DNA of 64,000 bases from a virus. Where the stretch lies: IMG/VR virus record IMGVR_UViG_3300045988_092303, one strand, 5' to 3'. Within the stretch, counting starts at the first letter, position 1. Every line of letters begins with the position of its first letter. Positions 10,516 through 56,774 of this stretch are shown one piece after another. The notes under the pieces were generated by a model that was not told the DNA's origin, made no database searches, and saw nothing but the letters and a program-made list of their open reading frames with translations. A program made the translations under genes and the position numbers.

Positions 10516-10587
10516 TGGGCTATCGCCAAGCGGTTAAGGCACAGGACTTTGACTCCTGTATCCCCGGTTCGAGTCCGGGTAGCCTAG
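10516..10587 (+). tRNA. tRNA-Gln (anticodon TTG)
   Basis: Manual cloverleaf: TGGGCTA acceptor, anticodon loop CTTTGAC, T arm CCCGG-TTCGAGT-CCGGG. Same architecture as E. coli tRNA-Gln. Confidence 0.85.
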
Positions 10588-11668: not shown

Positions 11669-11752
11669 GCCAACGTGCCCGAGCGGTAAAGGGAGCGGTC
11701 TTGAAAATCGTCTGTCAGAAATGGCTTGTGGGTTCAAATCCTACCGTTGGCG
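11669..11752 (+). tRNA. tRNA-Ser (anticodon TGA), class II
   Basis: GCCAACG/CGTTGGC acceptor, D arm CCC-GAGCGGTAAA-GGG, loop CTTGAAA, variable stem GTCA/TGGC, T arm GTGGG-TTCAAAT-CCTAC. Confidence 0.8.
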
Positions 11753-14884: not shown

Positions 14885-14986
14885 AACAATTACCGACTGA
14901 ATATTGATTCAGCCGCTAACCTAGAAAAATTATAGGCAGAGGTCTTACAAGCACCTTTGCTTTTTGAAAGTGGAGGTGCTTTTCTA

Positions 14987-28757: not shown

Positions 28758-28795
28758 GGGGCAATAGGTGTTACAGCCTACTGCCCCCTTTTTTG
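28758..28795 (+). terminator. Intrinsic terminator between fibre gene and TMP
   Basis: GGGGCAATAGG / CCTACTGCCCC stem followed by T6. Confidence 0.8.
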
Positions 28796-28867
28796 CTTAT
28801 AACAAGCAACCGAACACTGTTTGAAGTGTTCGCTAACCATCTAAAAACTAATGGTGGAGGTGATAAA

Positions 28868-30209
28868 ATGGGAGCAACCACGATTGATGATCTCCAGATC
28901 AAGATTGAAGCGGATGCGAAAACCGCTTCTGATAAGCTGGATGCGCTTGCTCAAAGCATGGTGAAACTGGCATCAAGCCTGAGCATCAATGTTGGCAAGA
29001 TGTCCGGTGTTGCTATTGGACTTAATAGCATTACCAAGGCATCGCAGAATCTCAATTCCAGAAATATTACGACGCTGGCAACTTCTATGGGGAAGGTAGC
29101 CGGTGTGGACTCTGCTCAAATTTCCAGAGTGGCAGGTTCTATGACACAGCTCAAAAACAGCGTTTCCGGTGGTTTTAATACCGATATGACCGGAATAGTG
29201 AATGTTGCTAATTCACTGTCAAAATTGGGCGGTAAGAACGCTACACAGGGCGCACAGAACCTTGTGCTGATAAAAGATCAGCTTGCTCAATTTGTGCAGG
29301 GGATGAACAGCGTAGGAACATTTACGTTTGACCCAACCGGTCTTACAAACACAATTAAAGCTATTGCGAAACTGGGCGGAAAGACTGCAACGCAGGCAAC
29401 GGCAAATCTTCCGAGTATTTCTGCTCAATTACAGAATTTTGTCCGGCAGATGAACCAGATCGGCTCCATGTCGTTTGACAACAAGAATCTGACTGACCTT
29501 GTAACGTCCATAGGCAGGCTAGGAAGCGTTGCAAGTGGGCGAGCGGTAAATAATATACCTTTGCTTGCAAACAACCTTAAATACCTGTTTGAGACGCTTT
29601 CAAAAGCACCATACATCAGCCAGAACATTATCCAGATGACTACGGCACTGGCTAATCTGGCACGTACAGGAGCATCTAGTGGTACTGCGGCAAGATCACT
29701 GGGGACAAATCTTTTCTCCTTCTCAAAATCTGCCGGTAACGCAAGTAAGAGTGCATTTTCTTTGGCAGGTGCTATCGGTAAGTTTTACGCAACTTACTGG
29801 ATGGTTATCAGAGGATTTGGACTTTTCCGGAATGCTATTGACATCTCATCCGATTTAACAGAGGTTGAGAACGTGGTACGTACCACGTTCGGAAATATGG
29901 AGTACAAGGTTAATGACTTTGTGCAAAACTCCATTCAGCAGTTCGGTATGTCCGAGCTTTCCGTTAAGCAGTATGCCAGTACATTCCAGGCTATGGGAAC
30001 TGCTATGGATGTTGGCGGCAAACAGATTGAGAACGCAAACAGGTTCTTAAATGGTGCCACAGACGGATATATTGGATTGTCAGATTCTATGTCCGATGTG
30101 TCTTTGAATCTTACTAAACTGACGGCGGATATGGCATCTTTCTACGACAAAGATCAGGCAGATGTAGCAAAAGATTTACAGTCCGTGTTTACCGGCATGG
30201 TTGTTCCGT
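28868..30209 (+). CDS. Tape measure protein, exon 1
   Basis: ORF track (28793-30226); ATG at 28868 after GGTGGAGGTG. The reading frame is cut in ...DLQSVFTGMVVP by intron sequence. Confidence 0.8.
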
Positions 30210-31548
30210 TGACTTTAGCGGCTTAACACAGAAATGTGTTTTGAAAAATCCGGAGAACGCAAGCAAAAGCGGTGTCAGAAGAAATTCTGGCTAACGGTAA
30301 AACTCTAAATTTGTATTTGCAATCTTCTTTATTTACTGTGCAAATTCGGTTATAATAATCATGAAAGGATATGGTTATTATGGAATTTGGGCAGGAAAAG
30401 AAATATTATGTATATGCTTGGTTTTACAAGCAATCAGGAAAATTATTTTATATTGGGAAAGGAACAAAATATAGATATCGTTCAAAGAAAAGAGATAATC
30501 ATAAACTTGTGGATATAATAAATTCTTGCGATTGTGACTCTAAAATTCTGGAAGGGAATCTTACAGAAGAAGAAGCCTATGATCTTGAAAAAGAGATGAT
30601 AAAGAAATATCGGTCACTTGGACATCCTTTAATAAATATTCAAGATGGAGGGCATCTTCCCCCTAATCACTCTGGCACACATAAAAGTGAAGAAGCAAAA
30701 AGGAAGATGAGTGAGAGTAGAAAAAAATATTTCAAAAATCATCCAGAGGCAAGAATAGAAGCTTCCGAAAGAATGAAAGATTTTTTCTTAACAGAAGAAG
30801 GAAAAGAATTTCAGAAAAAGTCTATAGAAGCAAGAAACAATGATGAGTTTAGAATGAAGTTATCCGAAAAATGTAGGAAAGCAAATAACACAGAAGAATA
30901 TAAAAATCGTCAATCCCAAATAATCAAAAAAAGATGGGAGTCTAAAGAATATGCAGATTCCTTTAGCGGAGAGAACAATCCTAATGCTCAGGCGGTTAGA
31001 CAGTATGACTTGAGTCATAATTTCATAGCAGAATATCAAACGATGGCAGAAGCAAGCAAAATTACCGGAGTTGGCCAGAGCAAAATTTCCTTGGTTTCAA
31101 GTGGAAAAAGGAAAACAGCAGGTGGATATATTTGGGAATATGCAACTGACAAAAGAATTTCCTACAAGAGAACGAAATCTACATATGATGTAAAAAAAGA
31201 TAAATCCGCAATTCCTATTTTGCAATATGATTTATCTGGAAAACTTGTCTCAGAATACAATAGCGTTGCAGAAGCAGCAAGAATAAATAATTTTCCAAAT
31301 AGAACTAATATTTCCACAAATTTGAGAGGAAGATCAAAAAGCGCATACGGCTTTGTATGGAAATACAAACATGACAATACCGTGCCGAGCCAATTAAAAA
31401 CCACCAATTGAGGTGGTTTTTTTATTGGAAGGTGTAACGACTAATTGTAGGGCGGAGATTAGCACCGCTCGAAGTACCGGAAATCCTTTTAGGATTGTGA
31501 GATAGTCTAATCCCCTAATAAATATCGGGAAACCGAGGGTAGTTAATG
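30210..31548 (+). mobile_element. Group I intron carrying a GIY-YIG homing endonuclease gene
   Basis: P1 CCGU (30206-30209) pairs with GCGG (30218-30221), giving U.G at the splice site. Last intron nt is G31548. P7 GACTA (31439) / TAGTC (31503); P8 AAATCC-tttt-AGGATT. Joining gives an in-frame 1347-aa TMP. Confidence 0.7.
30380..31411 (+). CDS. GIY-YIG homing endonuclease (I-TevI-like, NUMOD3-like linker, two C-terminal IENR1/NUMOD1-like HTH repeats)
   Basis: ORF track (30371-31411); YVYAW..GKLFYIGKGTKYR; repeats VRQYDLSHNFIAEY...GGYIWEY and ILQYDLSGKLVSEY...YGFVWKY. Confidence 0.85.
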   Translation: MEFGQEKKYYVYAWFYKQSGKLFYIGKGTKYRYRSKKRDNHKLVDIINSCDCDSKILEGNLTEEEAYDLEKEMIKKYRSLGHPLINIQDGGHLPPNHSGTHKSEEAKRKMSESRKKYFKNHPEARIEASERMKDFFLTEEGKEFQKKSIEARNNDEFRMKLSEKCRKANNTEEYKNRQSQIIKKRWESKEYADSFSGENNPNAQAVRQYDLSHNFIAEYQTMAEASKITGVGQSKISLVSSGKRKTAGGYIWEYATDKRISYKRTKSTYDVKKDKSAIPILQYDLSGKLVSEYNSVAEAARINNFPNRTNISTNLRGRSKSAYGFVWKYKHDNTVPSQLKTTN

Positions 31549-34250
31549 TAAGAAAGTACGGACTCGATTTAACGCAGGCTACTCTGAAAGAGTGGGCAAT
31601 GAAGAACGGCATGGATGCTGATATTAAGTCCATGACGCAGTCAGAAAAGGCAATGTTGCGGTATCAGTACGTCCTAGCAAATACCACGGCAGCACAAGGG
31701 GACTTCGCCAGAACAGCCGATAGCTGGGCCAATCAGGTACGAATTTTGAAGCAGAACTTCCAGCAGTTAGGCGGCATTATTGGTGGGGCACTGATTAACG
31801 CATTCAAACCGTTTTTACGGACTCTGAATTTTGTTATGCAAAAGGTAATCAGTTTTGCAACAATGGTAACAAATGCCCTTGGCGCAATATTCGGCTGGAA
31901 ATTTGAAGTGTCCGGCGGTGGTGTAGCTGATGACTGGTCAGATGCGGCAAGTTCAGCTGATGATCTGGCAGACAGTACCGGTAAAGCAGCTGACAATACA
32001 AAGAAGATGAAAACCAACCTTCTGGCTATTGACGAATTAAATGTACTTAACCCGGATGATTCAGATTACGGTTCCGGCGGTTCTGGTTCCGGTGCAGGTG
32101 GCGCAGGTGGCGGTGCAGGTGGTCTGGTTAAGACAGACACTATCTGGAAAGATTTTGAGAGTAATATCAAAGATCTGTATCAGCTTGGTGAGTATATACG
32201 TGATGCACTTATCGGTGCAATGGAAAGCATTGACTGGGACAGTGTGTATGAAAAAGCACGAAACTTTGGAACTGGCTTAGCACAGTTTCTTAATGGACTC
32301 TTTGCTGATGCTAACGGTATTACGCTTTTTGGAGAAGTCGGAAAAACCATTGCAAGCGCGCTGAACACAGTGATCTATGCAGCACTGGCGTTTGGACAGG
32401 AATTTGATTTTACGCAATTTGGATATAATATAGCAGATGGAATTAACCATTTTTTTGAAACATTCGATTTTGCTTCTTTAGCTGAAACTCTTAATGTATG
32501 GGCAAATGGAATTTTAAATGCTGCACAAGAAGCAGTAAGTGCTGTGCATTGGAATGAAGTGTTTAAAGGAATTGGTACTCTGTTTTTCAATTTGGACGCA
32601 ACTGCAATAGTCGAGGTGCTTGCACTTGGATTTGCTTGGAAAAATAAAGCTAAAATATTAAAAATGGCTGGTCTTTCTTTAGCAAAAGTGTTTGTTGGCG
32701 GAATTAAACTATCAGATATTTTAGTATCTATAACAAAATTGAGTTTTGTTCTTCCTGGAACACCTGCTTTTGATGTAATCGCAAGCAGAATTCTCGATAC
32801 GTTAAGTGATTGCCTTAGAAACTTGATTCCAGATTGGGCATTCGAAGCATTGAGTAAAATAGGTGCAGGATTAGTACTTGGTGCGGCTGGTGGTTCTTGG
32901 CTTCCTGGCCTTGGAACTATTGCAGGTGCAATTGTTGGAGGAATTGTAGGTGCATTAGATTCGATTGAAATTGATGGACAAAGTATTCTTCAAAATATCT
33001 TTGGAAAAATTTTCAATTTTGATACCACAATGGTGTTTTTTGAATCTGCCAAAGAAAATTTTAAAAAAGGCGGATTATATATAATTCTTGGGATTATTGA
33101 AGGAATCGAAGGTGCTATCAGCCTTTTACTAGAGCCAATCGCAGATGTGTTTACTTCTGTTATCGAATTTTTTTGCAATGTGTTTGGAATCCACAGTCCT
33201 GCTGAAACAATGAAACCAATTGGAGAAAATATTATCAGAGGTATAATTGTCGGTTTTAGTGAAACAGTTGGAGAATTTCTTGTTGAATTCCAAAGCCTTG
33301 CAACTTCTGTTACAGATTATTTGAATGAAAATTTAATTGTTCCGGTAGTAGAAATATTCACTATAGCCAGCCAGAATATAGAAAATTTGTTCAGTAATGC
33401 GTGGATAGCAATACAAGGAATTTGGTCTGTAGTATCAGCATGGTTTAATTCTACGGTGATCGTGCCGACTGTAAATTTCTTTACTACCATGAAAAACACT
33501 GTAACTAATCTTTTCCGATTACTGTGGACAGCTGTTCAAAATATCTGGATTGTTGTATCATCATGGTTTAACAACAACGTTATTGTGCCGACGGTAACAT
33601 TTTTCACAAAGTTCTACGAAAAAGTGAAAAAATTATTCTCTGATTTGTGGTCAAATGTGCAGGAAATCTGGAAAGTGGTTTCCGGCTGGTTTAGTGATAA
33701 TGTTATCACTCCGGTATCAAATTCATTTTCAGAAGCATGTAAAAATATTGCATCATACTTTGAAAATTTGTGGAAAAATGTGAAAAATGGCGTTGTCGGT
33801 GCTATGAACGTAGTCATTCAATCTGTAGAAAAAGCGGTTAATGGCGTTATTTCTATGCTGAATACGTTGCACTGGGAAATCCCGGACTGGGTGCCGGAGT
33901 TTGGTGGAAGATCGTTTGGTTTTCATATTAAACCTATAGCTTTGGAAAGAATCCCGATGTATGAAGTCGGAGGTTTCCCGGAGGACGGCTTGTTCTTTGC
34001 TAATCACAATGAAATGGTTGGTCAGTTCTCGAATGGCAGAACTGCAGTAGCAAACAATGAACAGATCGTTGCCGGAATCCGTGAAGGTGTTAAGGCTGCG
34101 GTTACGGAAGCACTGGCTCCTTATCTGTCAGACATTGCAGATACAAACCGGGAGATTGCCGAGAAGGATGCATCCATCAATGTGGATGGCCGGGAACTGG
34201 TTAATGCGATTAACAGCCGGATTAGCCGGAACGGTTTCAGTTTCACGTAA
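31549..34250 (+). CDS. Tape measure protein, exon 2
   Basis: Frame open from 31506; (L)RKYGLDLTQATLKEWAMKNGMDADIKSMTQSEKAMLRYQYVLANTTAAQGDFARTADSWANQ is the canonical TMP core. Confidence 0.8.
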
Positions 34251-34966: not shown

Positions 34967-34974
34967 CAGTTTTT

Positions 34975-35002
34975 GGGGCAGAGAAATCTGCCCTTATTTT
35001 TT
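34975..35002 (+). terminator. Intrinsic terminator
   Basis: GGGCAG / CTGCCC stem followed by T run. Confidence 0.8.
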
Positions 35003-35013
35003 TGTAAAAAAGT

Positions 35014-35042
35014 GTTGACTAAATGTCATGACAATTATATAA
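35014..35042 (+). promoter_or_regulatory. Consensus-like sigma70 promoter
   Basis: TTGACT, 17 nt, TATAAT. Confidence 0.7.
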
Positions 35043-35074
35043 TACAATTAAATCAAATGAAAGGAGCGGATGAA

Positions 35075-35254
35075 ATGTCACCTAGAAATGGTAGACCACC
35101 ATCAGAAAACCCAAAATCTCATAGAGAAAGTTTTCGATTATCTGATGATGACATGATGAAGTTAAATTATTGCATGGAAAAAACCGGAATGAAGAAAACG
35201 GAAGTCATCAGAAAAGGCATTGATTTGGTCTATAATAAACTAAAAAAGGAGTAA
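35075..35254 (+). CDS. CopG-type ribbon-helix-helix protein
   Basis: ORF track frame; ATG at 35075 after AAAGGAG; GRPPSENPKSHRESFRLSDDDMMKLNYCMEKTGMKKTEVIRKGI. Confidence 0.6.
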   Translation: MSPRNGRPPSENPKSHRESFRLSDDDMMKLNYCMEKTGMKKTEVIRKGIDLVYNKLKKE

Positions 35255-35808: not shown

Positions 35809-35939
35809 GTTACAAAGAAGAGATTGTTAAGATGCTGGAATGTATCAGCAATGAGCGGATTTTGAAACTCATTTACGGATTTGTCCGTAGCGGTTACAGA
35901 GAGGACAGAGCAATGAAAGGCGGTGCCAGAAATGACTGA
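35805..35939 (+). CDS. Tiny ORF d (44 aa), same family as the ORF at 44983-45093
   Basis: Own translation MSYKEEIVKMLECISNERILKLIYGFVRSGY..; ATGA overlap. Confidence 0.5.
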   Translation: MSYKEEIVKMLECISNERILKLIYGFVRSGYREDRAMKGGARND

Positions 35940-36681
35940 TATTCAGATTTTTAATAACCCGGATTTTGGAGACATTAGAACCGTTGAGGTTGACGGAAAA
36001 CCATATTTTGTTGGAAGAGACATTGCAAAAGCATTAGGATATAGTGACCCGCACAAAGCAGTATCCCGGCACTGTAAGGGTGGGATGAAATATCCCATAG
36101 GGGTGCAAACTGGTACGGGAGCTGATGGAACACCGATAATACAGGATATAGATATGCTTATCATTTCAGAAGGTGATGTTTACAGACTCATTATAAAGTC
36201 GCAGTTGCCGGCAGCAGAAAAGTTTGAAGGATGGGTAATGGATGAAGTCCTCCCGGCAATTAGGAAGAACGGCTCTTACACCATGCCGATCAGCACCAAC
36301 GACAAGATCATGCTTCTTGCGCAGGGACATATGGAGTTGCAACAGGAGGTTGACAGCATTAAGAAGGACATGGAGAGTCTGAAAATGGATTTACCGATTC
36401 TTCCAGTAGAGGAAGACCGGATAACATCCGCTGTGAAGCGCAAGGGACTGGCTGTGATGGGCGGTAAGACCTCTAATGTGTACCGGGATAAATCCATCCG
36501 CCGGAAGGTGTATCAGGGCATCTATGCGAATTTGAAGTACAACTTCCAGATCAAGACCTATCGGGCATTGAAACGGAGTCAGGTGGACAAGGCTATTGAG
36601 ATCATCAATAACTACCAGCCGCCGTATGTTCTGGCAGAACAGATAGACTCTGCAAATGCACAGCAGACCTTGATATTCTAG
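35932..36681 (+). CDS. Antirepressor-like protein (Bro-N domain + ORF6C-like C-terminal domain)
   Basis: ORF track; IQIFNNPDFGDIRTVEVDGKPYFVGRDIAKALGY. Confidence 0.8.
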   Translation: MTDIQIFNNPDFGDIRTVEVDGKPYFVGRDIAKALGYSDPHKAVSRHCKGGMKYPIGVQTGTGADGTPIIQDIDMLIISEGDVYRLIIKSQLPAAEKFEGWVMDEVLPAIRKNGSYTMPISTNDKIMLLAQGHMELQQEVDSIKKDMESLKMDLPILPVEEDRITSAVKRKGLAVMGGKTSNVYRDKSIRRKVYQGIYANLKYNFQIKTYRALKRSQVDKAIEIINNYQPPYVLAEQIDSANAQQTLIF

Positions 36682-36698
36682 GGAAAAACTGCTATAAT
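36670..36698 (+). promoter_or_regulatory. Sigma70-type promoter of leader L2
   Basis: TTGATA, 17 nt, TATAAT; overlaps the end of the previous gene. Confidence 0.65.
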
Positions 36699-36704
36699 AA
36701 AATC

Positions 36705-36855
36705 AAATTCAGCCGAATCCATCAGCTCCGCCCGGCTTGTCGTTGAGGGGAGAACGGGGCGAAAAGGATAGGACGAATCGAGCAAGGACGGCAAACATTT
36801 TGAGAAGCACGCTCACTGGACATGGTAGAGATACTGTGTCTGGTGGGCGTTTTTT
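36705..36855 (+). ncRNA. Leader RNA L2 (about 150 nt) ending in an intrinsic terminator; homolog of L1
   Basis: Shares blocks AGCAAGGACGG (36781), GAAGCACGCTC (36804) and GGGCGTTTTTT (36845) with L1. Terminator stem 36810-36822 / 36837-36849. Confidence 0.6.
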
Positions 36856-36886
36856 GTTTGTCTGAAAAATGGGAGGAAAGGGAAAA

Positions 36887-37609
36887 ATGGAAGAAACGAA
36901 GATTTTTAAGAGCGAAGAGTTTGGAGAAGTTAGAACTGCTGTGATCGACGGTGAAGCATGGTTCGTTGGCAAGGACGTTGCGGATATTCTTGGGTACCAG
37001 AATGGAAGCAGGGACATCAATGCACACGTAGACGATGAAGACAGAAGAATTATCAAAAGTACCGAAACGGTATCTTTGGATATTCCAAGTAGAGGAATGC
37101 TTTTAATCAATGAGTCAGGTCTCTACAGCCTTATTCTTTCAAGTAATATGCCGAACGCAAAGAAATTCAAAAAGTGGGTGACATCAGAGGTACTGCCGTC
37201 CATCAGAAAACATGGCATCTATGCCACTGACAATGTGATCGACAACATCCTGAATAACCCGGACTTTGGCATTGAGCTTCTTACAAAGCTGAAAGAAGAA
37301 CGTGCAGCAAGGGTAGAAGCTGAGAAAAAGAATGCGATCCTTACCCATGTGAATAAAACATATACCATGACCGAGATTGCGAAGGAACTGAATCTGAAAT
37401 CTGCCGTGGAGCTGAACAAAATCCTGGCGGATAAGAAGATCCAGTACAAGGTGAATGGAACATGGGTACTTTATTCCGATTATAGCAATCTTGGGTACGA
37501 AGATATCAAGCAGGAAGTCCTTGACAACGGAAGGGTGATTTATCACCGGAAGATCACACAGATGGGACGGGCATTTATCCTTGGACTTTTTGAGGACAAG
37601 GCGTCATAA
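36887..37609 (+). CDS. Antirepressor (Bro-N + KilAC domains)
   Basis: ORF track; ATG at 36887 after GGGAGGAAAGGG; KIFKSEEFGEVRTAVIDGEAWFVGKDVADILGY; KilAC-like C-terminus. Confidence 0.8.
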   Translation: MEETKIFKSEEFGEVRTAVIDGEAWFVGKDVADILGYQNGSRDINAHVDDEDRRIIKSTETVSLDIPSRGMLLINESGLYSLILSSNMPNAKKFKKWVTSEVLPSIRKHGIYATDNVIDNILNNPDFGIELLTKLKEERAARVEAEKKNAILTHVNKTYTMTEIAKELNLKSAVELNKILADKKIQYKVNGTWVLYSDYSNLGYEDIKQEVLDNGRVIYHRKITQMGRAFILGLFEDKAS

Positions 37610-37614
37610 AGATT

Positions 37615-37661
37615 AGCAGTAGTCAGTGGTTTATGGAGGTTCGACTCCTCCGGCTGCTTTT
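37615..37661 (+). terminator. Terminator hairpin containing a perfect tRNA T-arm plus acceptor-like stem (tRNA 3'-half mimic)
   Basis: AGCAG...GGAGG-TTCGACT-CCTCC-GG-CTGCT followed by TTTT. Confidence 0.55.
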
Positions 37662-37662
37662 A

Positions 37663-37721
37663 CAACTGGATAGGGTAGCTCCCGAAGAGCGGAAATCCTA
37701 CACCGCCTGCCAGTTGTTTTT
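37663..37721 (+). terminator. Second long hairpin terminator
   Basis: CAACTGG (37663) / CCAGTTG (37710) followed by T5. Its interior holds a 19-mer that is the exact reverse complement of 854-872. Confidence 0.55.
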
Positions 37722-37758
37722 CATAAATGTAGGAGTCTATTTGTAGGAGGTAGAGTAT

Positions 37759-38493
37759 ATGGAAAGAAAATCAAGAAAATTAGCAACAGAAAAGCAAATT
37801 TTATATGCAAATGCAATTGCAAAATCCCTTGAAATTGATTTGTGTTTTAAAAATGGTGATCCATATTATACGGTTTCAAAATTTATTAAAGAAAATGAAG
37901 AATACTATAAAGAAAATATCAAAATGGCAACACCAAGACAAATTGATTATGCAAATGCTATTTCTGACGAACTTAAAATCGAAAAGAAATTTGATGAAAC
38001 TGCTCTTGCAAAAGATGTTGCAAAATTTATAAGCGATCATGGAGAGGAATTTGCCCTGAATTGTGCAAAAAAGAAATATTTGGAAGAAAAAGTTGGATAT
38101 ATAAATAAAAATGGAGAATTTATTAGTTTTCCATTTGAATGTTGCGAATTTATGAGCGAAAACTTATATGGAAAACATGGAGTATATGCATTTTTAGATG
38201 GTTCTGAAAATGTAGTCTATATAGGAAAATCCATAAATCTCGCAGATAGAATAACAGGTTCATACCATGAAAGACAAGATGGAAGAATCGAAAAAATCAT
38301 GTATTACACAGATGAAAGTATGGCAAATGCTCATGTTTTGGAACTTATTTTGATAAACAAATATAAACCGATTTTTAATACGGATTGCAAATCTGATGAT
38401 GATTTTACTTTATTTCCATGCGATATAAGCATTGAAAAAGATTTTAAAGTTCTTCCGTATTTTTCAAATAAATGTAAGGAGGTAAATGCATGA
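37759..38493 (+). CDS. GIY-YIG domain protein with two N-terminal ATxxQIxYANAI repeats
   Basis: ORF track; GVYAFLDGSENVVYIGKSINLADRI; repeats ATEKQILYANAIAKSLEID and ATPRQIDYANAISDELKIE. Confidence 0.65.
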   Translation: MERKSRKLATEKQILYANAIAKSLEIDLCFKNGDPYYTVSKFIKENEEYYKENIKMATPRQIDYANAISDELKIEKKFDETALAKDVAKFISDHGEEFALNCAKKKYLEEKVGYINKNGEFISFPFECCEFMSENLYGKHGVYAFLDGSENVVYIGKSINLADRITGSYHERQDGRIEKIMYYTDESMANAHVLELILINKYKPIFNTDCKSDDDFTLFPCDISIEKDFKVLPYFSNKCKEVNA

Positions 38494-39500
38494 ATTACAA
38501 AGAGCTTTTATACAACAAAGATGCTGCATTAACCTTCTTTCCTAGACTGGCCGTAATTTTTAATAAATACGATGACATTGAGTCAGAGAAAGTTTTTCGT
38601 GAGACAGGGGAAAAAAGAAAATCTGATAAAAGTGGTCTTTCAAAAGCAATTGTTATTAACCAGCTTAATTACTGGTTAGGTATTAACCAGAAGAGTGGTA
38701 ACAATTTTAGAGATGGTTATTACTGGACGTATAATACATATCAAATGTGGGCGGATAATGACTTCGTTTTTTGGTCTGCTGATACCGTAAAACGGGTATT
38801 TACTTCCCTAGAAAAAATCGGAGTTGTTGTTTCTACGTCAGCATATAACAAACTTAGACTTGATAAAACAAAGTGGTACAGGATTGATTATGATAGATTG
38901 CAGGAAGTTATTGACACCGTAGAAGAAGACGAAAAAACACGAGCAGTGCAATGTGCACCGTCGAGGAGGGCAATGTGCACCGTCGAGGAGGGCAATGTGC
39001 ACCATAGAGGAGGGCAACTTGCACCGAGCAATACCATAGACTACACAGAGACTTCTTCAGAGACTACATCAGAGAGTATGAGAGTATGCTCTTTTTCAGC
39101 GGAAAAAGAGGTCTCTCCCACATCTGAAGGTGGTACGTTATCTCCTACGGTCACAAAAGCCATTGACGAGGCAATGACGGAAGAAGGAGAATCTCCAGAT
39201 AGCTTCTGTAGAGCCGAATTGAAGGATATAGCTGAATACTTTGTAAGCGAATATGCCAGAACGCAAGGAAAGCCGCATAAGCCACTCACAAGACCGGCTA
39301 TTAGCAATATCGTATACAATTACTTGCATCAAGACGAGGACGAATACGGAATCATGGATGATGTGTGGACGCTAGACCAGTACATTCCGTTAATTGATAT
39401 GTATATGCAGACGAACTACCGGGAGGGCATAGAAAAGAGCCTGTCCCACTTTATGTCCGGTTCTATCCGCCGGAATTTAAAAGCAAAATTGATAGAGTAA
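38490..39500 (+). CDS. Putative replication initiator (winged-helix N-terminal domain) containing iterons
   Basis: ORF track; AIVINQLNYWLG...YWTYNTYQMWADN..FWSADTVKRVFTSLEKIGVV...KTKWYRIDYD; internal 22-bp DNA repeats. Confidence 0.5.
   Translation: MNYKELLYNKDAALTFFPRLAVIFNKYDDIESEKVFRETGEKRKSDKSGLSKAIVINQLNYWLGINQKSGNNFRDGYYWTYNTYQMWADNDFVFWSADTVKRVFTSLEKIGVVVSTSAYNKLRLDKTKWYRIDYDRLQEVIDTVEEDEKTRAVQCAPSRRAMCTVEEGNVHHRGGQLAPSNTIDYTETSSETTSESMRVCSFSAEKEVSPTSEGGTLSPTVTKAIDEAMTEEGESPDSFCRAELKDIAEYFVSEYARTQGKPHKPLTRPAISNIVYNYLHQDEDEYGIMDDVWTLDQYIPLIDMYMQTNYREGIEKSLSHFMSGSIRRNLKAKLIE
38948..39035. repeat. 22-bp direct repeats x3.5 (GCAATGTGCACCGTCGAGGAGG): iteron-like ori candidate
   Basis: R1 38948-38969 equals R2 38970-38991; R3 has 2 mismatches; R4 is partial. 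The 22-nt period is not a multiple of 3, so this is not a peptide repeat. Confidence 0.7.
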
Positions 39501-39598
39501 GAATCATACCGGGTGCCGACGACGTAGGCATCCGCTAACCAGAAAAAGATACTGGCAGACTGCCGGAGGGCACTTCTGCCGAGAACGGAGGTGCCTGT

Positions 39599-40012
39599 AT
39601 GGCAACAAAAATAGTACGAGCAGGTTCCGGCCTGTCTTCTTTCTTGAATGTGAACGGGGTAGATTTCCCGTGCCCTAGGGTGGGATTTTCGTATATTATC
39701 AGCACAACGGTAAATGCAGGGCGAAATGCGAACAATGCGGTTATTGGCCAGAGAGTAGGAAGAGACATTTTTAAACTGAACAATTTGGAATGGGCAATGC
39801 TGGATGCAGAAACATGGCAGCGGATGTTAAAAGCAATTAAACCATTTTATGTGCCGGTAACTTTTGAAGATTATCGGACAGGTCGTCCGATCACCATTAC
39901 AATGTATCCGGGAGACAGGACGGCAACACCATTATTTGCAGACCCGGATTCTCACATTGTTACAAAGTATGAAAACTGCAAATTCAATCTGATTGATGCC
40001 GGTTGGGAGTGA
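39599..40012 (+). CDS. Small tail protein (putative distal-tail/baseplate component)
   Basis: ORF track; SD GGAGGTG; assigned by position. Confidence 0.4.
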   Translation: MATKIVRAGSGLSSFLNVNGVDFPCPRVGFSYIISTTVNAGRNANNAVIGQRVGRDIFKLNNLEWAMLDAETWQRMLKAIKPFYVPVTFEDYRTGRPITITMYPGDRTATPLFADPDSHIVTKYENCKFNLIDAGWE

Positions 40013-40018
40013 TAGATC

Positions 40019-42322
40019 ATGCAAAATGTAAGTGCAGCATATAAAAAGGCCATGCGACAACCGATGCGGAACCGTGGCTATATAACTGCCCGAATCGGAA
40101 TTATCAGTTCCACAGCGCAGGATAACGTAGTTGCAAAAGAATCTGATAATGATTTTGCTTACTTTGCGAATATCACGGAAGTGTTCAAAGATAACACAGT
40201 AAGCCGGGTATATGCCACCATGGAGCAGGATTTCGCAAAGGTTGACGGAACCATGTACTTCCTTCCAGAGGAATACGACGGGTATGACTACTACAATAAT
40301 GGTCTGGTGACGAATGAGCTGCTAAGTCCCATGTACATTTCCTTTGACGGAAACATTGCGGATATTAAGGGACTCACAATTGATTTTGGGGAATACTACC
40401 CGACTTCATTTACGGTTCAGTCTGATAACGGTACGAAAACATATGAAAATGCAGGGAAAATATTTGTTACCGAGGATACATTTGATGCGGTAACGTTCCT
40501 GCGGATAACACCTGTGACTATGGTTAATGGACAGGGAAGGATGCGAATTTTACAGTTTACCTGCGGAATTTCCAATACTTTCTCAAATAAGCAGGTGAAA
40601 TCATTCACATATAAAGATTACGTATCGTCTGTATGCGAGTCCCTTCCGAGTCAGGATATGACTTTGACGGTAGATAATCAGGATTTATATTATAACCCGG
40701 ATAACCCGGAATCAGCCGTTGCATACATGGAGCAGGGGCAGGAAATGAAAGTTTCCTTCGGATATGACATTGACGGAGCTGGAACGATTGAATGGGTGCC
40801 GGAAATAACCACATTCCTTAAATCGTGGTCGGCGACCGATACAGAAGCTAAATTTACTATGGTTGATGTATTTAACTGGAAACTAAATGGAACGTATTAC
40901 AAGGGTCTGTACCGCACGGAGGGCATATCTCTGTATGATATGGCGTTGGATGTTTTGACAGATGCCGGCATGAAGCCAGAAGAATATGTGATCGACCCGT
41001 ATTTGCATGATGTCAAGGTATACAATCCTATGCCCGCGGTGAAACATTCAGAGGCCTTGCAGATCATATCGAATGCCGGACGCTGCGTTTTAAGCGTTGA
41101 CCGGAAAGGAAGGGTACTGATTAGATCATCTTTTATCCCGGATATGACTTCCAGTGACGGAATAGATTTGCTGTATCCAAGTAATTTCCTGTATCCGGGA
41201 GAAGATGTACTACCGATAGGGGACAACGGGACGGCAGCACAAACAGAATTCAGCCATGCAGAAAATGTTCTGAAATCAGGAAAGCGGACAGCATATGCAA
41301 TGTTCAGTAACGATTTTTCCGTGGTAGATGGAACGGTGATGTTTCTTCCAGAGTCAGAAGCGGATTATGTTGATACGACTGGATATGTCAGTGATAGCAT
41401 AGCGGATGAAAACGGGGAGTTTCAGGACATACCAAAAATTATCATCGAATTGGAGTCTGGATATATTTGTTACGGTTTTGCTATTCAATTCCGGAATGTG
41501 GCACCTAAAGAATACCACGTAGTAACCTACTATCAGGAAGAACAGGTGCAGGATGTAACGGTCGAAAATCCTGGATTATACAGCCAGTACACAGAACAGC
41601 TTGACCGGTTCGACGTCATGGAGATTGTGTTCAAGAAAGGTTACCCAAATGCCAGAGTGGCGGTTGACTCGGTATTGTTCGGAAATGCAACAGATTACAC
41701 GCTGTCAAGAGATTACAATTTGAAGGGTTCACCGACTGCAACAAGACAAGAAAGAGTCAAAACGATTGCAGTTAAGCGAAGCCTTTACAGAAATTCTACA
41801 TTGGCAATTAAAGAATTATCGTCAGAAGAACTCACGCTGGCCGGAACAGAGATCACGAAAACGATTCATTTTAGCAAAGCGTCATACGGTCTTACAGTGT
41901 CCATAGAAGAGGGGACTGCAACGGCAACGATTACTGCCAGCAGCAACTACTTCGCAGATATTAAGATCACAGGAGCAGCCGGCGAAAAAATCAGATATTC
42001 TGTCAAGGGATATGAATATGTTGTGGATGAACTGTATTACAGAGTCAACCACAATGACACAGGAATTGAAAAAGCATGGAGCAATCCTCTAATCAGCACC
42101 GAAGAGCTGGCAAAAGATCAGGAAGAATGGCTTGCATCCTACTATCTGGGTGATGTAGATTATCAGATCACATGGAATGGAGACCCACGGACGGATGCGA
42201 ATGATCTTTTCTATCTGGAATTAAAAGAGAGAGACAACACGATGATACGAGCCTACCAGAATGAGTTGAAATATAGCTCCGGATGGTCAGGCACTTTAAA
42301 GGCAAGAAAGGTGGTGCTGTAA
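40019..42322 (+). CDS. Large tail/baseplate protein (Tal-like) with an internal duplicated segment
   Basis: ORF track; 767 aa; repeats ..MEQDFAKVDGTMYFLPEEYDGYDY.. and ..MFSNDFSVVDGTVMFLPESEADYVD.. Confidence 0.5.
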   Translation: MQNVSAAYKKAMRQPMRNRGYITARIGIISSTAQDNVVAKESDNDFAYFANITEVFKDNTVSRVYATMEQDFAKVDGTMYFLPEEYDGYDYYNNGLVTNELLSPMYISFDGNIADIKGLTIDFGEYYPTSFTVQSDNGTKTYENAGKIFVTEDTFDAVTFLRITPVTMVNGQGRMRILQFTCGISNTFSNKQVKSFTYKDYVSSVCESLPSQDMTLTVDNQDLYYNPDNPESAVAYMEQGQEMKVSFGYDIDGAGTIEWVPEITTFLKSWSATDTEAKFTMVDVFNWKLNGTYYKGLYRTEGISLYDMALDVLTDAGMKPEEYVIDPYLHDVKVYNPMPAVKHSEALQIISNAGRCVLSVDRKGRVLIRSSFIPDMTSSDGIDLLYPSNFLYPGEDVLPIGDNGTAAQTEFSHAENVLKSGKRTAYAMFSNDFSVVDGTVMFLPESEADYVDTTGYVSDSIADENGEFQDIPKIIIELESGYICYGFAIQFRNVAPKEYHVVTYYQEEQVQDVTVENPGLYSQYTEQLDRFDVMEIVFKKGYPNARVAVDSVLFGNATDYTLSRDYNLKGSPTATRQERVKTIAVKRSLYRNSTLAIKELSSEELTLAGTEITKTIHFSKASYGLTVSIEEGTATATITASSNYFADIKITGAAGEKIRYSVKGYEYVVDELYYRVNHNDTGIEKAWSNPLISTEELAKDQEEWLASYYLGDVDYQITWNGDPRTDANDLFYLELKERDNTMIRAYQNELKYSSGWSGTLKARKVVL

Positions 42323-42323
42323 T

Positions 42324-42731
42324 ATGGCGTGGATTCAGCCTAAAACAAACTGGGCGGTTGGAGACCGGTTCAATATATCGGATTACAACAGGATTAAGGG
42401 AAATCTGAATTTTTTACACGAACGAGCGGAAGAGCTTTACCCGGATTTCAAAATCATCAATATGGGAGCGGATAAAGGATATTCCGATTACCCATATGCC
42501 CGTGAAATCAATAATTTTGAGAAGAACCTGGAAACAATCAACGATAATGTTTTCACACAAGATTTTGGTGTAACAGCAACATTCTACAGCAATGGGGCTT
42601 TTATTCAGTGGAACGAACTGAACCGGATAGAGTCAGGCATTTTAAGCATTTATGAAATGTTGAATAGGCAGGAAGCGGGACTTCCGGTGCTGTCATTCAG
42701 ACTTGGTAATATGAGAGGAGTGAAGTTGTGA
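42324..42731 (+). CDS. Tail fibre-associated protein
   Basis: ORF track; assigned by position. Confidence 0.45.
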   Translation: MAWIQPKTNWAVGDRFNISDYNRIKGNLNFLHERAEELYPDFKIINMGADKGYSDYPYAREINNFEKNLETINDNVFTQDFGVTATFYSNGAFIQWNELNRIESGILSIYEMLNRQEAGLPVLSFRLGNMRGVKL

Positions 42732-43183
42732 TGTTAAAGACGGATTACAAAGATGATATTATTGCTAACGGAACAAAGAGAAAGTACACGCAGACAACAA
42801 ATTCTGACGGGACGATCTCTTTGACTGATGCTACGGAGTATCAGCAGGAGGGAGACAATTTTGGAGCAAAGGACATCAATGATACAAATATCGTTGTTAA
42901 TGGATTAAAAGGAGTCAAAGAAGCAGCTTTACTGGCTGCAGGATGGACGGGATCCGAAGCACCATATCAGCAGATCGTATTAGTTGATGGAATAAAAGAG
43001 GATGATTCACCGATACTTGTAAGTTTGTTAGCTGATGGAGCGTCAGAAGCAACGCAGAAAGCTTACAGTAAGGCTTTTGGAATTGTTTCTTCTGGAACAG
43101 GGACAACCTCTGCAGGAAGTGTCACTTTCAAAGTATACAAAAAACCAGCCACGGATATCACGGTCGGCTTGAAAGGAGTATAA
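42731..43183 (+). CDS. Tail fibre/baseplate accessory protein
   Basis: ORF track; ATG at 42731. Confidence 0.45.
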   Translation: MLKTDYKDDIIANGTKRKYTQTTNSDGTISLTDATEYQQEGDNFGAKDINDTNIVVNGLKGVKEAALLAAGWTGSEAPYQQIVLVDGIKEDDSPILVSLLADGASEATQKAYSKAFGIVSSGTGTTSAGSVTFKVYKKPATDITVGLKGV

Positions 43184-43186
43184 TCT

Positions 43187-43948
43187 ATGGGAATGATTTT
43201 AATGCCGGGCGGCGGTGGTGGAATTGATCTTGACCTTGTTACTGCGCTTGCAGGTGATGTACTTAGCGGAAAAGTAATTGTTGGGGCGGATGGGGAACCA
43301 ATAACAGGAACGCTTGCTTTAACAGGAGATGCAGGTACGGGAGATGTACTGTCCGGGAAGACGTTCTACAATGCCGATGCAAAAACAAAGCGTTCTGGAA
43401 CAATGGCGAACAGAGGCGCGTTGAACTGGTCTGGAAGTAATACAACAAAATCTGTGGATGCCGGATATTATAGCGGAGGTACACTAGATAGTAGACCATC
43501 GTATAATTCTGGACGTACTCAAGGACAGAATGATGTAAAAAATAGCCCGAATTCATACGGGCTATATACAAAGGCGCAGTATGATGCGAATTATAATAAC
43601 GGCTTAAACGCAAAAGTAAACAATTTATCAGTCAAACAAGAACAATTTAATAACAAGACAACAGATTCGAGCAAGAAAGCCTACTTCAATGTTGCAGCAA
43701 ATACAGGAAAACACTATGTAGTAGTAAGTGTCGTATCGAGAGCAAATACTACGGCGGATACGCTAAAACATTCTCTTGCTGTAACAAATGGATCTATAAG
43801 TCAATTACAACAAATTTTAAGCAACTCAAGTACCTGCGTTACTGTTTGGCACTTAGAAAAAACGAATTCATCTGCCGTTTCTACAATAACTGTTACCGCT
43901 GGAAGATCAGATGCTGATGCATTTATGCTTGTAATTAAATTAACTTAA
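43187..43948 (+). CDS. Tail fibre / receptor-binding protein
   Basis: ORF track; repeated GDVLSGK(V/T)F motif; last gene of the + strand structural operon. Confidence 0.5.
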   Translation: MGMILMPGGGGGIDLDLVTALAGDVLSGKVIVGADGEPITGTLALTGDAGTGDVLSGKTFYNADAKTKRSGTMANRGALNWSGSNTTKSVDAGYYSGGTLDSRPSYNSGRTQGQNDVKNSPNSYGLYTKAQYDANYNNGLNAKVNNLSVKQEQFNNKTTDSSKKAYFNVAANTGKHYVVVSVVSRANTTADTLKHSLAVTNGSISQLQQILSNSSTCVTVWHLEKTNSSAVSTITVTAGRSDADAFMLVIKLT

Positions 43949-44702
43949 AGACATACGCCACATATCCGATCATATCATCGACATCACCTTCTGAGCATCG
44001 GGATCTGTTATCTCTGATGCTCACATATTCACATTTTCCATTTCCGCAAGGAATTCTGCGGGCAATGAACACATTGTCCCCGTAAATGATGATGCTATCC
44101 TCGGTATGGCGTGGATTGCGGTCATTGGCGATTAGAAGAATGTCATATGGCGTGTAGTGCGGCATATAGTTGTCGACGGATGTTTTTATGCCCATAAAAA
44201 TTTGCGGCTTGATATTTTGCGGAATATCAGTGATATCAAGGGATTCAAACTCGCCGGAAATATGTAACGTGCCGTCTGGATGTTCCTCCAGATTCATCAC
44301 AGGGACAGTTTTTCTCCCTTGCCGGAAACCGCCCAAAGAAAGATCATATTGCCTGCGGACGAACCAGCGCACAAAATACTGATAGTGTTCAGGCATTTCA
44401 CGGAACATAGAAATGCAGTCCATGTCCTCTTCGGAAATAGTGTCAAGTCCGATTAGCTCATCCACTGTAACACCTATAGCCTTGGCTAAGAGGGCGGCAG
44501 TGGACAACTTACAGTCTTTGGAATTCTGGTACAACAGATTTTTAAGCGTGTCAAAAGAAATACCGGCGGATTCAGCCAATTCATGAATGGTAATATCTGA
44601 ATACTTTAAGCAAATATCCAAATTGTGACGTAAATTATCTGTAAAGATAGTGCTTTCTCTGGTAAAATGTCCCGATAATTTATACAAATTTTCTTTTTTC
44701 AT
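43935..44702 (-). CDS. CI-like repressor: XRE HTH + S24/LexA-like C-terminal domain lacking recognisable Ser/Lys catalytic residues
   Basis: ORF track; HTH ITIHELAESAGISFDTLKNLL. By-eye alignment puts VDNYMPH where GDSMxP is expected and IARRI where VKRL is expected. Confidence 0.6.
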   Translation of the reverse strand: MKKENLYKLSGHFTRESTIFTDNLRHNLDICLKYSDITIHELAESAGISFDTLKNLLYQNSKDCKLSTAALLAKAIGVTVDELIGLDTISEEDMDCISMFREMPEHYQYFVRWFVRRQYDLSLGGFRQGRKTVPVMNLEEHPDGTLHISGEFESLDITDIPQNIKPQIFMGIKTSVDNYMPHYTPYDILLIANDRNPRHTEDSIIIYGDNVFIARRIPCGNGKCEYVSIRDNRSRCSEGDVDDMIGYVAYVFKLI

Positions 44703-45564: not shown

Positions 45565-45593
45565 TTGACAAATGTTTTTGACCGACTTATAAT
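45565..45593 (+). promoter_or_regulatory. Rightward early promoter
   Basis: TTGACA, 17 nt, TATAAT. Confidence 0.7.
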
Positions 45594-45623
45594 TGTTTTA
45601 CAATCAACAAGGAGGTGAGGAAA

Positions 45624-46136
45624 ATGGAAGGAGATGAGGAACGTCTAAAGAGGATTTGGACTTTGATGATAGGGAGGTGTCATGGTAATTACAAAGATGA
45701 TTCTTATAAAAGAAATGGAATTAAAGTTTGTGATGAATGGAGAAATTCTTTTGATGAGTTCAAACATTGGGCACTAGAAAATGGATATAGCTCTCGATTG
45801 CTGATAGATAGAATGGATACATTCGGAAATTATGAACCGAACAATTGTAGATGGATAACAAGGGAGGAAAACGCGAGAAACAAAAGAAACACAATTTTTG
45901 TTTTGTATGACGGAAAAGTTGTTAAGCTGTGCGAACTATGCAGAGAAAAGAGAGTTTCACTTTCTACTGTTTATTCCAGATTAAGAAATGGATGGGACAT
46001 AGAAAAAGCGTTATCTGAACCTGTGCGAAAAAGAAAAAGAAAAAAGTATGGTATTCGCAAGTCCGAAACAAAGAAAACAGGGAAAAAGTTGTACTGTGCC
46101 GTTCCGTATCAAAAGGCAAAGAGAGAAGAAAACTGA
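45624..46136 (+). CDS. Homing-endonuclease-like DNA-binding protein, degenerate HNH_3-like, paralog 2
   Basis: ORF track; LKRIWTLMIGRC..NGIKVCDEW..IDRMDTFGNYEPNNCRW..; basic tail. Confidence 0.6.
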   Translation: MEGDEERLKRIWTLMIGRCHGNYKDDSYKRNGIKVCDEWRNSFDEFKHWALENGYSSRLLIDRMDTFGNYEPNNCRWITREENARNKRNTIFVLYDGKVVKLCELCREKRVSLSTVYSRLRNGWDIEKALSEPVRKRKRKKYGIRKSETKKTGKKLYCAVPYQKAKREEN

Positions 46137-47263: not shown

Positions 47264-48058
47264 ATGAATGAACCGGTACAAAGCAATATGCGTACTCCGA
47301 TTGAGATTGCGCTTGATATTGACGGCGAGGGGATGACTACGGCTAGAAAGCTGTATGAGTTTCTGGAACTGGCACCGCAGAATTATGCAAGATGGCTTAA
47401 AGCTAATATTCTTGATAATGAATTTGCTACTGAAAATGAGGATTATTTTTACTCTTCATCAATGAAGAGTGAACATGGAAGAGGCAATTTTGCCGAGGAT
47501 TACCGTCTGACAGCCCATTTTGCAAAGAAACTCTCCATGAAGGGAAATGGTGAGAAAGCAGAACAGGCAAGAGAGTATTTTTCGTTGGTTGAGGAAAAAG
47601 TTAAGCAGACTGTCATTGACCGTTCGCAACTGTCACCGCAGTTACAGCTTATGAATATGCTTGTCGAAAATATGAACAGGGCAGAGATTGAGCAGAAACG
47701 GCAGGCACAGCAGATCGCAAAGGTTGAGCAGACAGTTGACACCATAAAAGAGATATTCACAGAGCCTATTGGGGACTGGAAAGCGGAAATAAATGCGAGG
47801 GTGCGTGAAATCTCAATAAAGAGCGGTACTGACTATCAGTCTTTATACAGCCAACTTTACGGGGAACTGGAAACAACGGCACATTGCAGTCTGAAGAGAT
47901 TGCAGGATAACAAACGTTCCAGAATGGAGAAAGCCGGGAACACAAAGACGGCTATCAAGGATGGAACAACAAAAATTGCAATCATTTATGAAAAACCGCA
48001 GCTGAAAGCCATTTTTGAGGGAATCGTAAAGAGATATGCAATGAAATATTGCTCATAG
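47264..48058 (+). CDS. Antirepressor (AntA-like N-terminal domain + ORF6C-like C-terminal domain)
   Basis: ORF track; MTTARKLYEFLELAPQNYARWLKANI...DYRLTAHFAKKLSM. Confidence 0.7.
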   Translation: MNEPVQSNMRTPIEIALDIDGEGMTTARKLYEFLELAPQNYARWLKANILDNEFATENEDYFYSSSMKSEHGRGNFAEDYRLTAHFAKKLSMKGNGEKAEQAREYFSLVEEKVKQTVIDRSQLSPQLQLMNMLVENMNRAEIEQKRQAQQIAKVEQTVDTIKEIFTEPIGDWKAEINARVREISIKSGTDYQSLYSQLYGELETTAHCSLKRLQDNKRSRMEKAGNTKTAIKDGTTKIAIIYEKPQLKAIFEGIVKRYAMKYCS

Positions 48059-56758: not shown

Positions 56759-56774
56759 TAGAGAGGGTGAGAAA

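Follow-up and report, generated by a model that had tools for sequence, protein, structure and literature searches.

The stretch of viral DNA analysed here (IMG/VR virus record IMGVR_UViG_3300045988_092303; 64,000 nucleotides, hereafter the window) contains two copies of a structured leader RNA, L1 and L2. L2 and its promoter occupy positions 36670–36856 of the plus strand. They lie in a variable island that is bounded by the tape-measure gene (end at 34250) on one side and by the distal tail genes on the other. The island encodes a DUF4352 protein, a small ribbon-helix-helix (RHH)-like protein (34973–35254) and Ant1, a Bro-N+ORF6C protein (35923–36681), after which L2 begins; three good same-strand terminators, at 34256, 34975 and 35331, separate L2 from the tape-measure operon and shut off transcription arriving from upstream. 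Both this accessory setting and the promoter TTGATA-17-TATAAT at 36670–36698 had been proposed from the DNA letters alone (the sequence-only reading), and both hold. The -35 hexamer TTGATA (36670–36675) and the -10 hexamer TATAAT (36693–36698) are separated by a 17-nucleotide (nt) spacer and match in 11 of 12 positions, with a TG extended -10 at 36690–36691, which places the promoter among the best matches in a 20-kb scan. Transcription is predicted to start near 36705.

L2 ends in a long hairpin (36809–36855, plus strand) with a 19-pair stem (36809–36827/36832–36850), the loop GAGA and six T residues at 36850–36855. The stem includes five G·U and 8 G-C pairs; the 13-bp stem with three G·U pairs described previously is its lower part. 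The T-run is followed, after 31 nt and a GGGAGG sequence (36871–36876), by the ATG at 36887 of Ant2 (36887–37609, plus strand, 240 aa), whose assignment as a Bro-N/KilAC protein is borne out by Pfam matches to Bro-N and KilAC/ANT (6.6e-29 and 1.3e-13).

L1 (7551–7746 with its promoter, plus strand) has the same architecture. Its promoter at 7551–7579, TTGACA-17-TATTAT, is an 11/12 match and the best of its region, and its terminator and T-run (7699–7745) comprise 11 + 6 pairs (17) and T6. Both promoters are near-consensus sigma-70 promoters, strong and apparently constitutive, and both hairpins, being G+C-rich and followed by a U-tract, class as intrinsic (Rho-independent) terminators. In both copies the sigma-70 promoter is thus followed by ~85 nt of structured domain, then by the invariant GAGYAAGGACGG and an A-rich linker, and last by the long intrinsic terminator; the leader RNA is ~150 nt long. 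A covariance model (CM) finds exactly two copies in the 64 kb, L2 at 36695–36856 (150 bits) and L1 at 7577–7746 (136 bits). Six blocks are identical between them (AGCCGA, CCCGG, CGTnGAGGG, GAGCAAGGACGG, GAAGCACGCTC and GGGCGTTTTTT), with diverged sequence in between. L2 is therefore a true second copy of L1, as had been claimed, with identical blocks, CM matches and its own promoter and terminator. The resemblance greatly exceeds chance, both copies falling into a family of more than 60 distinct sequences whose helices covary. Matches to AGCAAGGACGG at 49878 and 56570 lie within open reading frames (ORFs), have flanks without similarity and were discarded as chance.

The 12-mer GAGCAAGGACGG (L2, 36780–36791; L1, 7663–7674) consists of three parts: GAGC, the candidate strand of an antiterminator helix (P5); AAGG, which is unpaired and invariant; and ACGG, the 3' strand of a pseudoknot. 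The 12-mer stays invariant even where the search pattern left it free, its sole variant being GAGU. In L2 the A-rich variable linker (36792–36807) follows. An AAAUUnA motif is conserved near the predicted start of the leaders, and inspection by eye revealed no consistent -10-like hexamer there.

The structured domain folds into four helices, P1 to P4. In L2, P1 is formed by 36712–36714/36771–36773, P2 by 36717–36722/36764–36769, P3 by 36725–36730/36755–36760 and P4 by 36731–36733/36747–36749, closing a loop at 36734–36746. The loop segment UUGUCGU (36737–36743) pairs with ACGGCAA (36788–36794) to give the pseudoknot. The L1 domain (7594–7677) is built likewise from P1 (7594–7596/7655–7657), P2 (7599–7604/7648–7653), P3 (7607–7612/7636–7641) and P4 (7613–7615/7628–7630), with the pseudoknot GUCCGU (7619–7624) to ACGGAC (7671–7676). 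L1 and L2 differ by three compensatory changes in P3 (GGUUCU/AGAGCC versus GCUCCG/CGGGGC) and by G-C to U-A and U-A to G-C swaps in the pseudoknot.

We tested this structure (P1, P2, P3, P4, the pairing of the P4 loop with ACGGC, and the terminator) on 25 representative leaders. A raw MAFFT alignment analysed with RNAalifold recovers only P4 and the terminator, since the variable helices are out of register; the leaders were therefore realigned with a CM built on the proposed nested structure, and the register was then set purely by sequence, with the loop YCGW and the AGG that follows P2 as anchors. With 3' partners slid by 1–3 columns as negative control, 89.9% of cells are paired in the observed structure against 37–44% in the controls, 26 of 40 pairs have changes on both sides against 7–9, and the covariation score is 0.416 against 0.04–0.09; none of 500 shuffles reached the observed values. 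Compensatory changes are found in 8 of 9 pairs of P1 and P2, 5 of 6 of P3, 2 of 3 of P4 and 9 of 15 of the terminator helices, where the upper stem is the covarying part and the base, ACGCUC/GGGCGU, is invariant. The 5-bp core of the pseudoknot is paired in essentially all 25 sequences, with G-C to U-A swaps in L1-type leaders and C-G to U·G in L2. G·U pairs are frequent on the plus strand (for example U·G at the terminator base in 24/25 sequences), which identifies the folded molecule as plus-strand RNA and not DNA. The invariant unpaired nucleotides are A30, G53, A82 and GAGYAAGG. The fold is conserved and backed by covariation and carries conserved unpaired nucleotides, which is the combination asked of a riboswitch.

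More than 60 distinct relatives were collected from IMG/VR gut phages, and nearly all leader-bearing contigs stem from human-gut metagenomes. A pattern for the 5' core gave 12 relatives, and one for the 3' half gave 45 loci with 38 distinct leaders. Protein-guided retrieval added the variants in which GAGU replaces GAGC, and a pattern that constrained neither GAGY nor the terminator added the subfamily of L220, with an extra hairpin between P2 and P3. The signature suggested for this search by the sequence-only reading, GAGCAAGGACGG...GAAGCACGC, proved too strict and returned a single chance match in a GC-rich ORF; GAAGCACGC is not conserved, relatives having AAUCAC, GCAGCAC or AUACAC. Among 185,579 bacterial and archaeal species genomes there were 23 matches, of which 21 were chance and 2 true. 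Both true matches are contigs of metagenome-assembled genomes without reliable taxonomy, with a terS-like gene downstream in each, and the scan never found the element beside metabolic or transporter genes. In a TerL comparison, Clostridium phage Maintenon, whose host is [Clostridium] innocuum, comes closest among cultured phages, with 40% identity.

Neither L1 nor L2 matches a family of Rfam 15 at the gathering threshold. At E ≤ 10 there are only spurious miRNA-type matches to the terminator hairpin and no riboswitch model. BLAST of either leader against 50,697 GenBank phages gave no match, and a full-text literature search for the invariant 12-mer returned unrelated primer sequences only. 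A published IMG/VR intergenic catalogue lists 8,495 candidate structured RNAs (csRNAs), of which 1,241 carry terminators and some precede terminase genes (PMC10690425). Its csRNAs (2023) are without names, its models average 67 nt and the paper describes no two-operon pseudoknot leader; the present motif could be one of these csRNAs. The element represents an RNA family that is new but belongs to a known type of regulator, and it falls outside the catalogued Rfam families.

Clustering 47 leader instances by their neighbours gives two classes. Class I leaders, such as L1, are always followed by a terS-like gene 25–35 nt downstream, and in all 24 CM-positive loci retrieved via the TerS-like protein the leader lies just upstream, the CM match being 30–35 nt from the terS-like gene. 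Class II leaders, such as L2, always precede tail-tip/baseplate genes, usually with one Bro-N/KilA-N/Rha-type gene first, and the L2 promoter position is kept in all class II relatives. The class II order is an optional gene, usually int-alpA RNA and a DnaD-like ORF, then a 137-aa protein and a ~740–767-aa protein, after which relatives have a protein with a Gp10_C baseplate domain; in 22 loci a distance of 1.1–3.2 kb separates the leader from the 137-aa gene downstream. These associations recur in four additional metagenome contigs, and a leader of each class is present on at least 15 contigs.

What all class II relatives have in common is a downstream block homologous to window 39075–43600. 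The first gene behind the leader is Rha-like in L018 and an ORF6N/KilA-N gene in L216–L219 and L043, and is missing in L008, L014 and L034. Since relatives swap or lack it, the Bro-N/KilAC gene is variable cargo and not the conserved target. The proposal that L2 gates an antirepressor thus stands only in so far as that gene lies directly downstream in this window. Gene order across relatives points to the packaging/head/tail operon (class I) and the tail-tip operon (class II) as the conserved targets.

Over the structured domain, L1 and L2 have 60% identity, and their flanks have nothing in common; each matches leaders of its own class in other genomes at 91–100% identity. Mean leader identities are 0.68 within class I, 0.84 within class II and 0.62 between the classes. 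The two leaders are therefore old paralogues; a recent segmental duplication taking flanking genes with it, which had been named as the finding that would overturn the earlier interpretation, is contradicted by the low identity and the unshared flanks. The idea of a portable cassette fits the data well. Homology between window and relatives is lost at two points, ~36683 (inside the promoter, between the -35 and -10 hexamers) and 36868 (12 nt past the T-run), and the L2 cassette has two upstream contexts, either Ant1 or a helix-turn-helix (HTH) regulator homologous to window 43935–44702. In some relatives the leader directly follows an uninterrupted 1,771-aa tape measure, and in four (L008, L010, L014 and L038) the whole of L2 and the tail-tip block (window 36683–43600) is inverted with respect to the tape measure, so that the leader comes to lie immediately after the HTH regulator. 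We considered programmed inversion by the invertase encoded in the window. In the window, the block borders carry no inverted repeats, and the inversion therefore appears to have arisen by rearrangement during evolution.

Upstream of more distant terS homologs (L078–L136, at ~2700–3000), the same place holds a consensus promoter, a leader of 100–130 nt and a terminator, but the leader sequence is unrelated. The L109-type leader retains the loop UCCGUCGAGG and a downstream ACGGAC, a likeness that may point to a larger superfamily. In L003, the tape measure is followed by a third cassette, again of a different type (7218–7411, minus strand). Such diversity of leaders at a fixed position would sooner be expected of phage-specific pairs of site and factor than of a universal metabolite sensor. 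In the other terS-leader group the 137-aa gene follows a plain gene-end terminator, so that a comparison of matched leaders is uninformative there.

The terminators are unusually long: Bacillus terminator stems are typically 9 ± 2 bp, compared with 17–19 pairs in the leaders, and stems of more than 14 bp withstood the only RNA-based processive system put to the test (PMC10325885). Stems of this length suggest a tight default-off gate that needs dedicated release. To find a competing helix, each leader was folded after being cut before the terminator 3' strand. Under these conditions GCUC at the terminator base finds just one consistent partner upstream, GAGY, and the pairing probability averages 0.44 across the 25 leaders. 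This 4-bp helix, P5 (GAGY:GCUC), can pair in 25/25, and the only variant, C to U, keeps a G·U pair; both strands also stay invariant in subfamilies retrieved without constraining either. P5 excludes the terminator pairs closest to the U-tract and is therefore a plausible antiterminator.

The promoter, the structure, the terminator, the two copies per genome and the gene associations are what the sequences show. We read L2 and L1 as cis-acting conditional attenuator/antitermination leaders of two late virion operons, and give this reading a probability of roughly 0.55. After the sigma-70 promoter fires, the first ~85 nt would fold as the P1–P4 stack, and the apical loop of P4 would pair with ACGG(C) of the invariant GAGYAAGGACGG to form the pseudoknot. 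By default, RNA polymerase (RNAP) would stop at the 17–19-pair hairpin and its U-tract and release a leader transcript of ~150 nt. For read-through, the folded domain, stabilised by a trans-acting factor, would let GAGY capture GCUC, and the resulting P5 would remove the U-tract-proximal base pairs that termination needs. A phage or host protein, or RNAP itself, seems a likelier factor than a metabolite. Since class I gates terS, head and tail genes and class II the tail tip, one signal would switch on both virion operons. The Bro-N/KilAC gene would be a passenger that landed just behind the gate; that it is wired into an antitermination switch, as the sequence-only reading suggested, is plausible.

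A close parallel to such a gate is late control in lambda, where pR', the 194-nt '6S' leader, tR' and Q likewise combine a strong constitutive promoter, a short leader and an intrinsic terminator ahead of the late operon. The default-off logic, with read-through switching on virion genes, would be shared. Loading of lambda Q depends on a site in the promoter DNA and on a sigma-dependent pause; a conserved fold of the leader RNA is not required in lambda. The present leader, in contrast, has four covarying helices and a pseudoknot and occurs twice per genome. None of the scanned window ORFs matches a Q-family antiterminator, and the gene upstream of L1 (7095–7355) is RHH-like.

Within this reading, we infer that the gate is off by default, that P5 opens it, that there is a trigger and of what nature, and any processive effect on terminators further downstream. 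Several considerations weigh against a conditional leader. P5 is only 4 bp long and is without covariation support because both its strands are invariant, and the conservation of GAGY and GCUC could instead reflect protein recognition or terminator strength. Searches with Pfam, PHROGs and NCBIfam revealed no NusG/KOW, Q, N, ANTAR, CAT or sigma candidates in the window, a negative limited by the many window ORFs that have no annotation. The anchors of the alignment were picked by us and the CM was seeded with our own structure, which favours that structure somewhat; the slid-partner control addresses this bias. The block at 39599–43948 is taken to be a tail-tip/baseplate module by synteny and one Pfam domain in relatives, and the tail genes could in part escape L2 through a promoter downstream of it that went unrecognised.

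A metabolite- or ion-sensing ON riboswitch would account for much of the same structure. P1–P4 and the pseudoknot would then be the aptamer, and a ligand, for example a nucleotide-derived signal reporting host state, would stabilise P5 and suppress the terminator. The covarying multi-helix fold with its H-type pseudoknot, the conserved unpaired A30, G53, A82 and GAGYAAGG, and the ability of the 5' base of the terminator to pair alternatively with an invariant aptamer-proximal segment all agree with this, as do the retention of the same invariant nucleotides by phages of otherwise different gene content and the lack of a dedicated protein partner in the window annotation. The preQ1, SAM-II and guanidine-III riboswitches, too, pair a hairpin loop with a 3' tail beside an A/G-rich conserved strand, and riboswitches likewise offer a platform in which an intrinsic terminator competes with an alternative helix (here the candidate P5). 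The invariant ...AAGGACGGC presumably resembles the guanidine-III tail ...CAAGACGGCGC, which we treat as a lead only. We nevertheless think a riboswitch unlikely. Unlike riboswitches, the element has structural-gene cargo, is confined to phages and matches no Rfam riboswitch, with no known model scoring even at E ≤ 10. It is essentially absent from the 185,579 species genomes and never adjoins metabolic or transporter genes there. Related phages put sequence-unrelated leader-terminator cassettes at the same position, and the gene context, a terS-like or tail-tip gene, suggests no ligand.

A somewhat broader idea is that the leaders are a class of phage-borne regulatory RNA not described before, which directly senses a signal (a small molecule or alarmone) or binds RNAP, and so synchronises the two virion operons; we regard this as tentative. 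A small molecule or alarmone would report the state of the host or of its defences. In both forms of the idea the pseudoknotted domain would control the capture by GAGY of the base of a terminator that could not otherwise be overcome.

RNA can also act on the polymerase constitutively, as in HK022 put or EAR, and the leaders might simply bind the RNAP that has just transcribed them and make it terminator-resistant, with the result that the long operons would be crossed only by transcripts started at these two promoters. Like lambda nutL and nutR and HK022 putL and putR, the leaders occur as two RNA copies, each just after the promoter of a long operon, with terminators downstream; here these are the terminator-like hairpins at 24281, 24923 and 37634 and at the int-alpA end. 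Again the window annotation offers no protein partner, and RNA-based processive antiterminators are known from Gram-positive mobile elements (PMC8191782). On balance we doubt this strongly. Every member has a strong built-in terminator that shares invariant nucleotides with the leader and would be purposeless if antitermination were constitutive, and stems of this size resisted the processive RNA system mentioned above (>14 bp; PMC10325885). The architecture differs as well. The nut site is a 15-nt boxB hairpin with boxA and needs N; put consists of two hairpins in ~70 nt, has no built-in terminator and acts without a protein factor. The present element instead has ~85 nt of stacked helices, four in number, and a pseudoknot; invariant nucleotides link it to a terminator of its own, and it would gate late rather than early operons. 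No N-like protein is seen in the window annotation, and the fold differs from boxA/boxB as far as can be said without a dedicated boxB pattern search.

conAn (the ConAn1 protein with the conAn2 RNA), EAR and the LoaP leaders also involve 5'-proximal RNAs, in mobile elements or long operons of Firmicutes, that let RNAP pass intrinsic terminators. conAn occurs in Gram-positive conjugative plasmids, where the ConAn1 gene precedes the conAn2 RNA of ~280 nt; conAn2 has 20-bp flanking inverted repeats and a GC-rich box but no terminator of its own, and ConAn1 is needed for long range (PMC8191782). Our leaders, unlike conAn, directly follow the promoter, are ~150 nt long and have no gene ahead of them within the transcription unit. 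On informal comparison, their sequence and fold appear unrelated to the conAn2, EAR and LoaP RNAs. No ConAn1- or LoaP-like protein is evident in the window annotation, which was not supplemented by a dedicated ConAn1 homology search.

Still less probable, in our view, is a small RNA function in which two loci supply the terminated ~150-nt transcript as the actual product, to act in trans or to sequester a protein; the location ahead of late operons would then be secondary. A strong promoter and a strong terminator do delimit a discrete transcript, its conserved single-stranded AAGGA/AGGA could be protein-binding sites, and the neighbouring int-alpA RNA is another small structured RNA in these phages. 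Yet in every lineage the element lies on the same strand as, and immediately upstream of, the first gene of an operon, and it does so whichever way the tail block is oriented. This placement and the maintenance of two diverged paralogues at two specific operon heads both point to a role in cis, and no complementarity to a target was recognised.

It is scarcely credible that there is no regulatory RNA here but a recent duplication or a palindromic DNA site (pac/cos, operator or recombination site), even though class I leaders adjoin a terS-like gene, where pac sites often lie, and recombination breakpoints fall at the cassette borders. Identity between L1 and L2 is only 60%, and three helices show compensatory changes; the G·U pairs are strand-specific, one strand always carries both promoter and U-tract, and the packaging genes lie far from the second copy. 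Attenuation by a leader peptide was rejected, as inspection of the leader sequences revealed no conserved ORF.

Around L1, the window encodes an RHH-like protein of 86 aa (7095–7355), assigned by sequence pattern with no Pfam match, just upstream, and the terS-like gene (7779–8447, plus strand; PF16677 GP3_package, 1.1e-05, below the curated cut-off) downstream. A small RHH-like gene recurs directly upstream of class I promoters and is more likely a DNA-binding regulator of that promoter. The region 5' of the L1 promoter (7380–7550) is AT-rich with repeated TATATA/GTCTATA motifs and an GGCAGTATATAAG box, is also kept upstream of class I leaders in relatives, and possibly acts as operator or UP-element region for the RHH-like protein encoded next to it. 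The terS-like gene is followed by a serine invertase (8933–9505), MazG, tRNA genes, TerL (14957–16765), portal, major head, neck and major tail proteins and an endolysin. The three tRNA genes (10516–10587, 10858–10929 and 11669–11752) lie between the terS-like gene and TerL. In this L1-driven operon the terS-like and terL genes are 6.5 kb apart because the invertase and a MazG-like pyrophosphatase precede TerL.

The tape-measure gene (28793–34250) is split into 28793–30226 and 31599–34250 by an insertion of ~1.3 kb (30209–31537) that contains an HNH ORF (30371–31411). Relatives join window 30208 directly to 31538, and the insertion is probably a group I intron. Its 3' end (31489–31552) has 89% identity with sequences lacking annotation in ~200 phages of Listeria, Staphylococcus, Enterococcus and Bacillus.

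Behind Ant2, a T-arm-like hairpin with GGAGGTTCGACTCCTCC and a U-run (37634–37652, plus strand) lies just before an int-alpA RNA (37663–37729, plus strand; Rfam RF02996, 47.5 bits). The hairpin and the int-alpA end are both terminator-like and stand between Ant2 and the tail genes. The pair (37625–37729) also occurs after other class II leaders, directly in L008, L014 and L034 and after the Rha-like gene in L018. A GIY-YIG-like ORF, a DnaD-like ORF and then the tail-tip block follow. This conserved class II cargo (39599–43948, plus strand), a putative tail-tip/baseplate module, comprises the 137-aa protein (39599–40012), a 767-aa protein (40019–42322) and three further genes (42324–42731, 42728–43183 and 43187–43948), all on the plus strand, and is closed by an HTH regulator on the minus strand (43935–44702). 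Searches of PDB, NCBIfam, Pfam and PHROG gave no name for the 137-aa protein; its 593 homologs are all 'hypothetical', and its structure prediction reached a predicted local distance difference test (pLDDT) score of only 30.

The window has three antirepressor-type genes (35923–36681, 36887–37609 and 47264–48058, the last phrog_373 anti-repressor), two HTH regulators (5623–5868 and 43935–44702), two RHH-like genes (7095–7355 and 34973–35254) and no integrase. A type II hammerhead ribozyme on the minus strand (4790–4855; RF02276, 59.6 bits, E 8e-10) adjoins a minus-strand ORF without family match (4858–5460). A perfect 12/12 sigma-70 promoter, TTGACA-17-TATAAT (45565–45593), lies just upstream of an HNH endonuclease gene (45615–46136). 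Dense short direct repeats (56951–57233) fall within the ORF 56727–57467, which encodes a YdcK-type beta-solenoid/bactofilin-like repeat protein. A Tad3 family type I Thoeris inhibitor (57880–58413, plus strand; PF25185, 1.4e-37) has two DNA methyltransferases (59432–61014), an ASCH-domain protein and a YopX protein nearby.

The timing of late genes in uncultured gut Bacillota phages is largely unexplained, and the element is a compact, sequence-defined device with a well-supported fold that marks where late transcription units begin and appears to link two such units. For annotators it is a marker both of late-operon starts and of a mosaic junction at which Bro/KilA/Rha-type genes are swapped. 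For experimenters it is an RNA of ~150 nt with clear mutational targets in the pseudoknot, GAGY and GCUC, and it could provide a tight, portable transcriptional gate for engineering Clostridia-like hosts. If the trigger were a ligand or RNAP itself, the leaders would form a new class of riboregulator; direct sensing, if true, would make them the first known riboswitch for phage late genes, or a fourth type of RNA antiterminator after put, EAR and conAn2.

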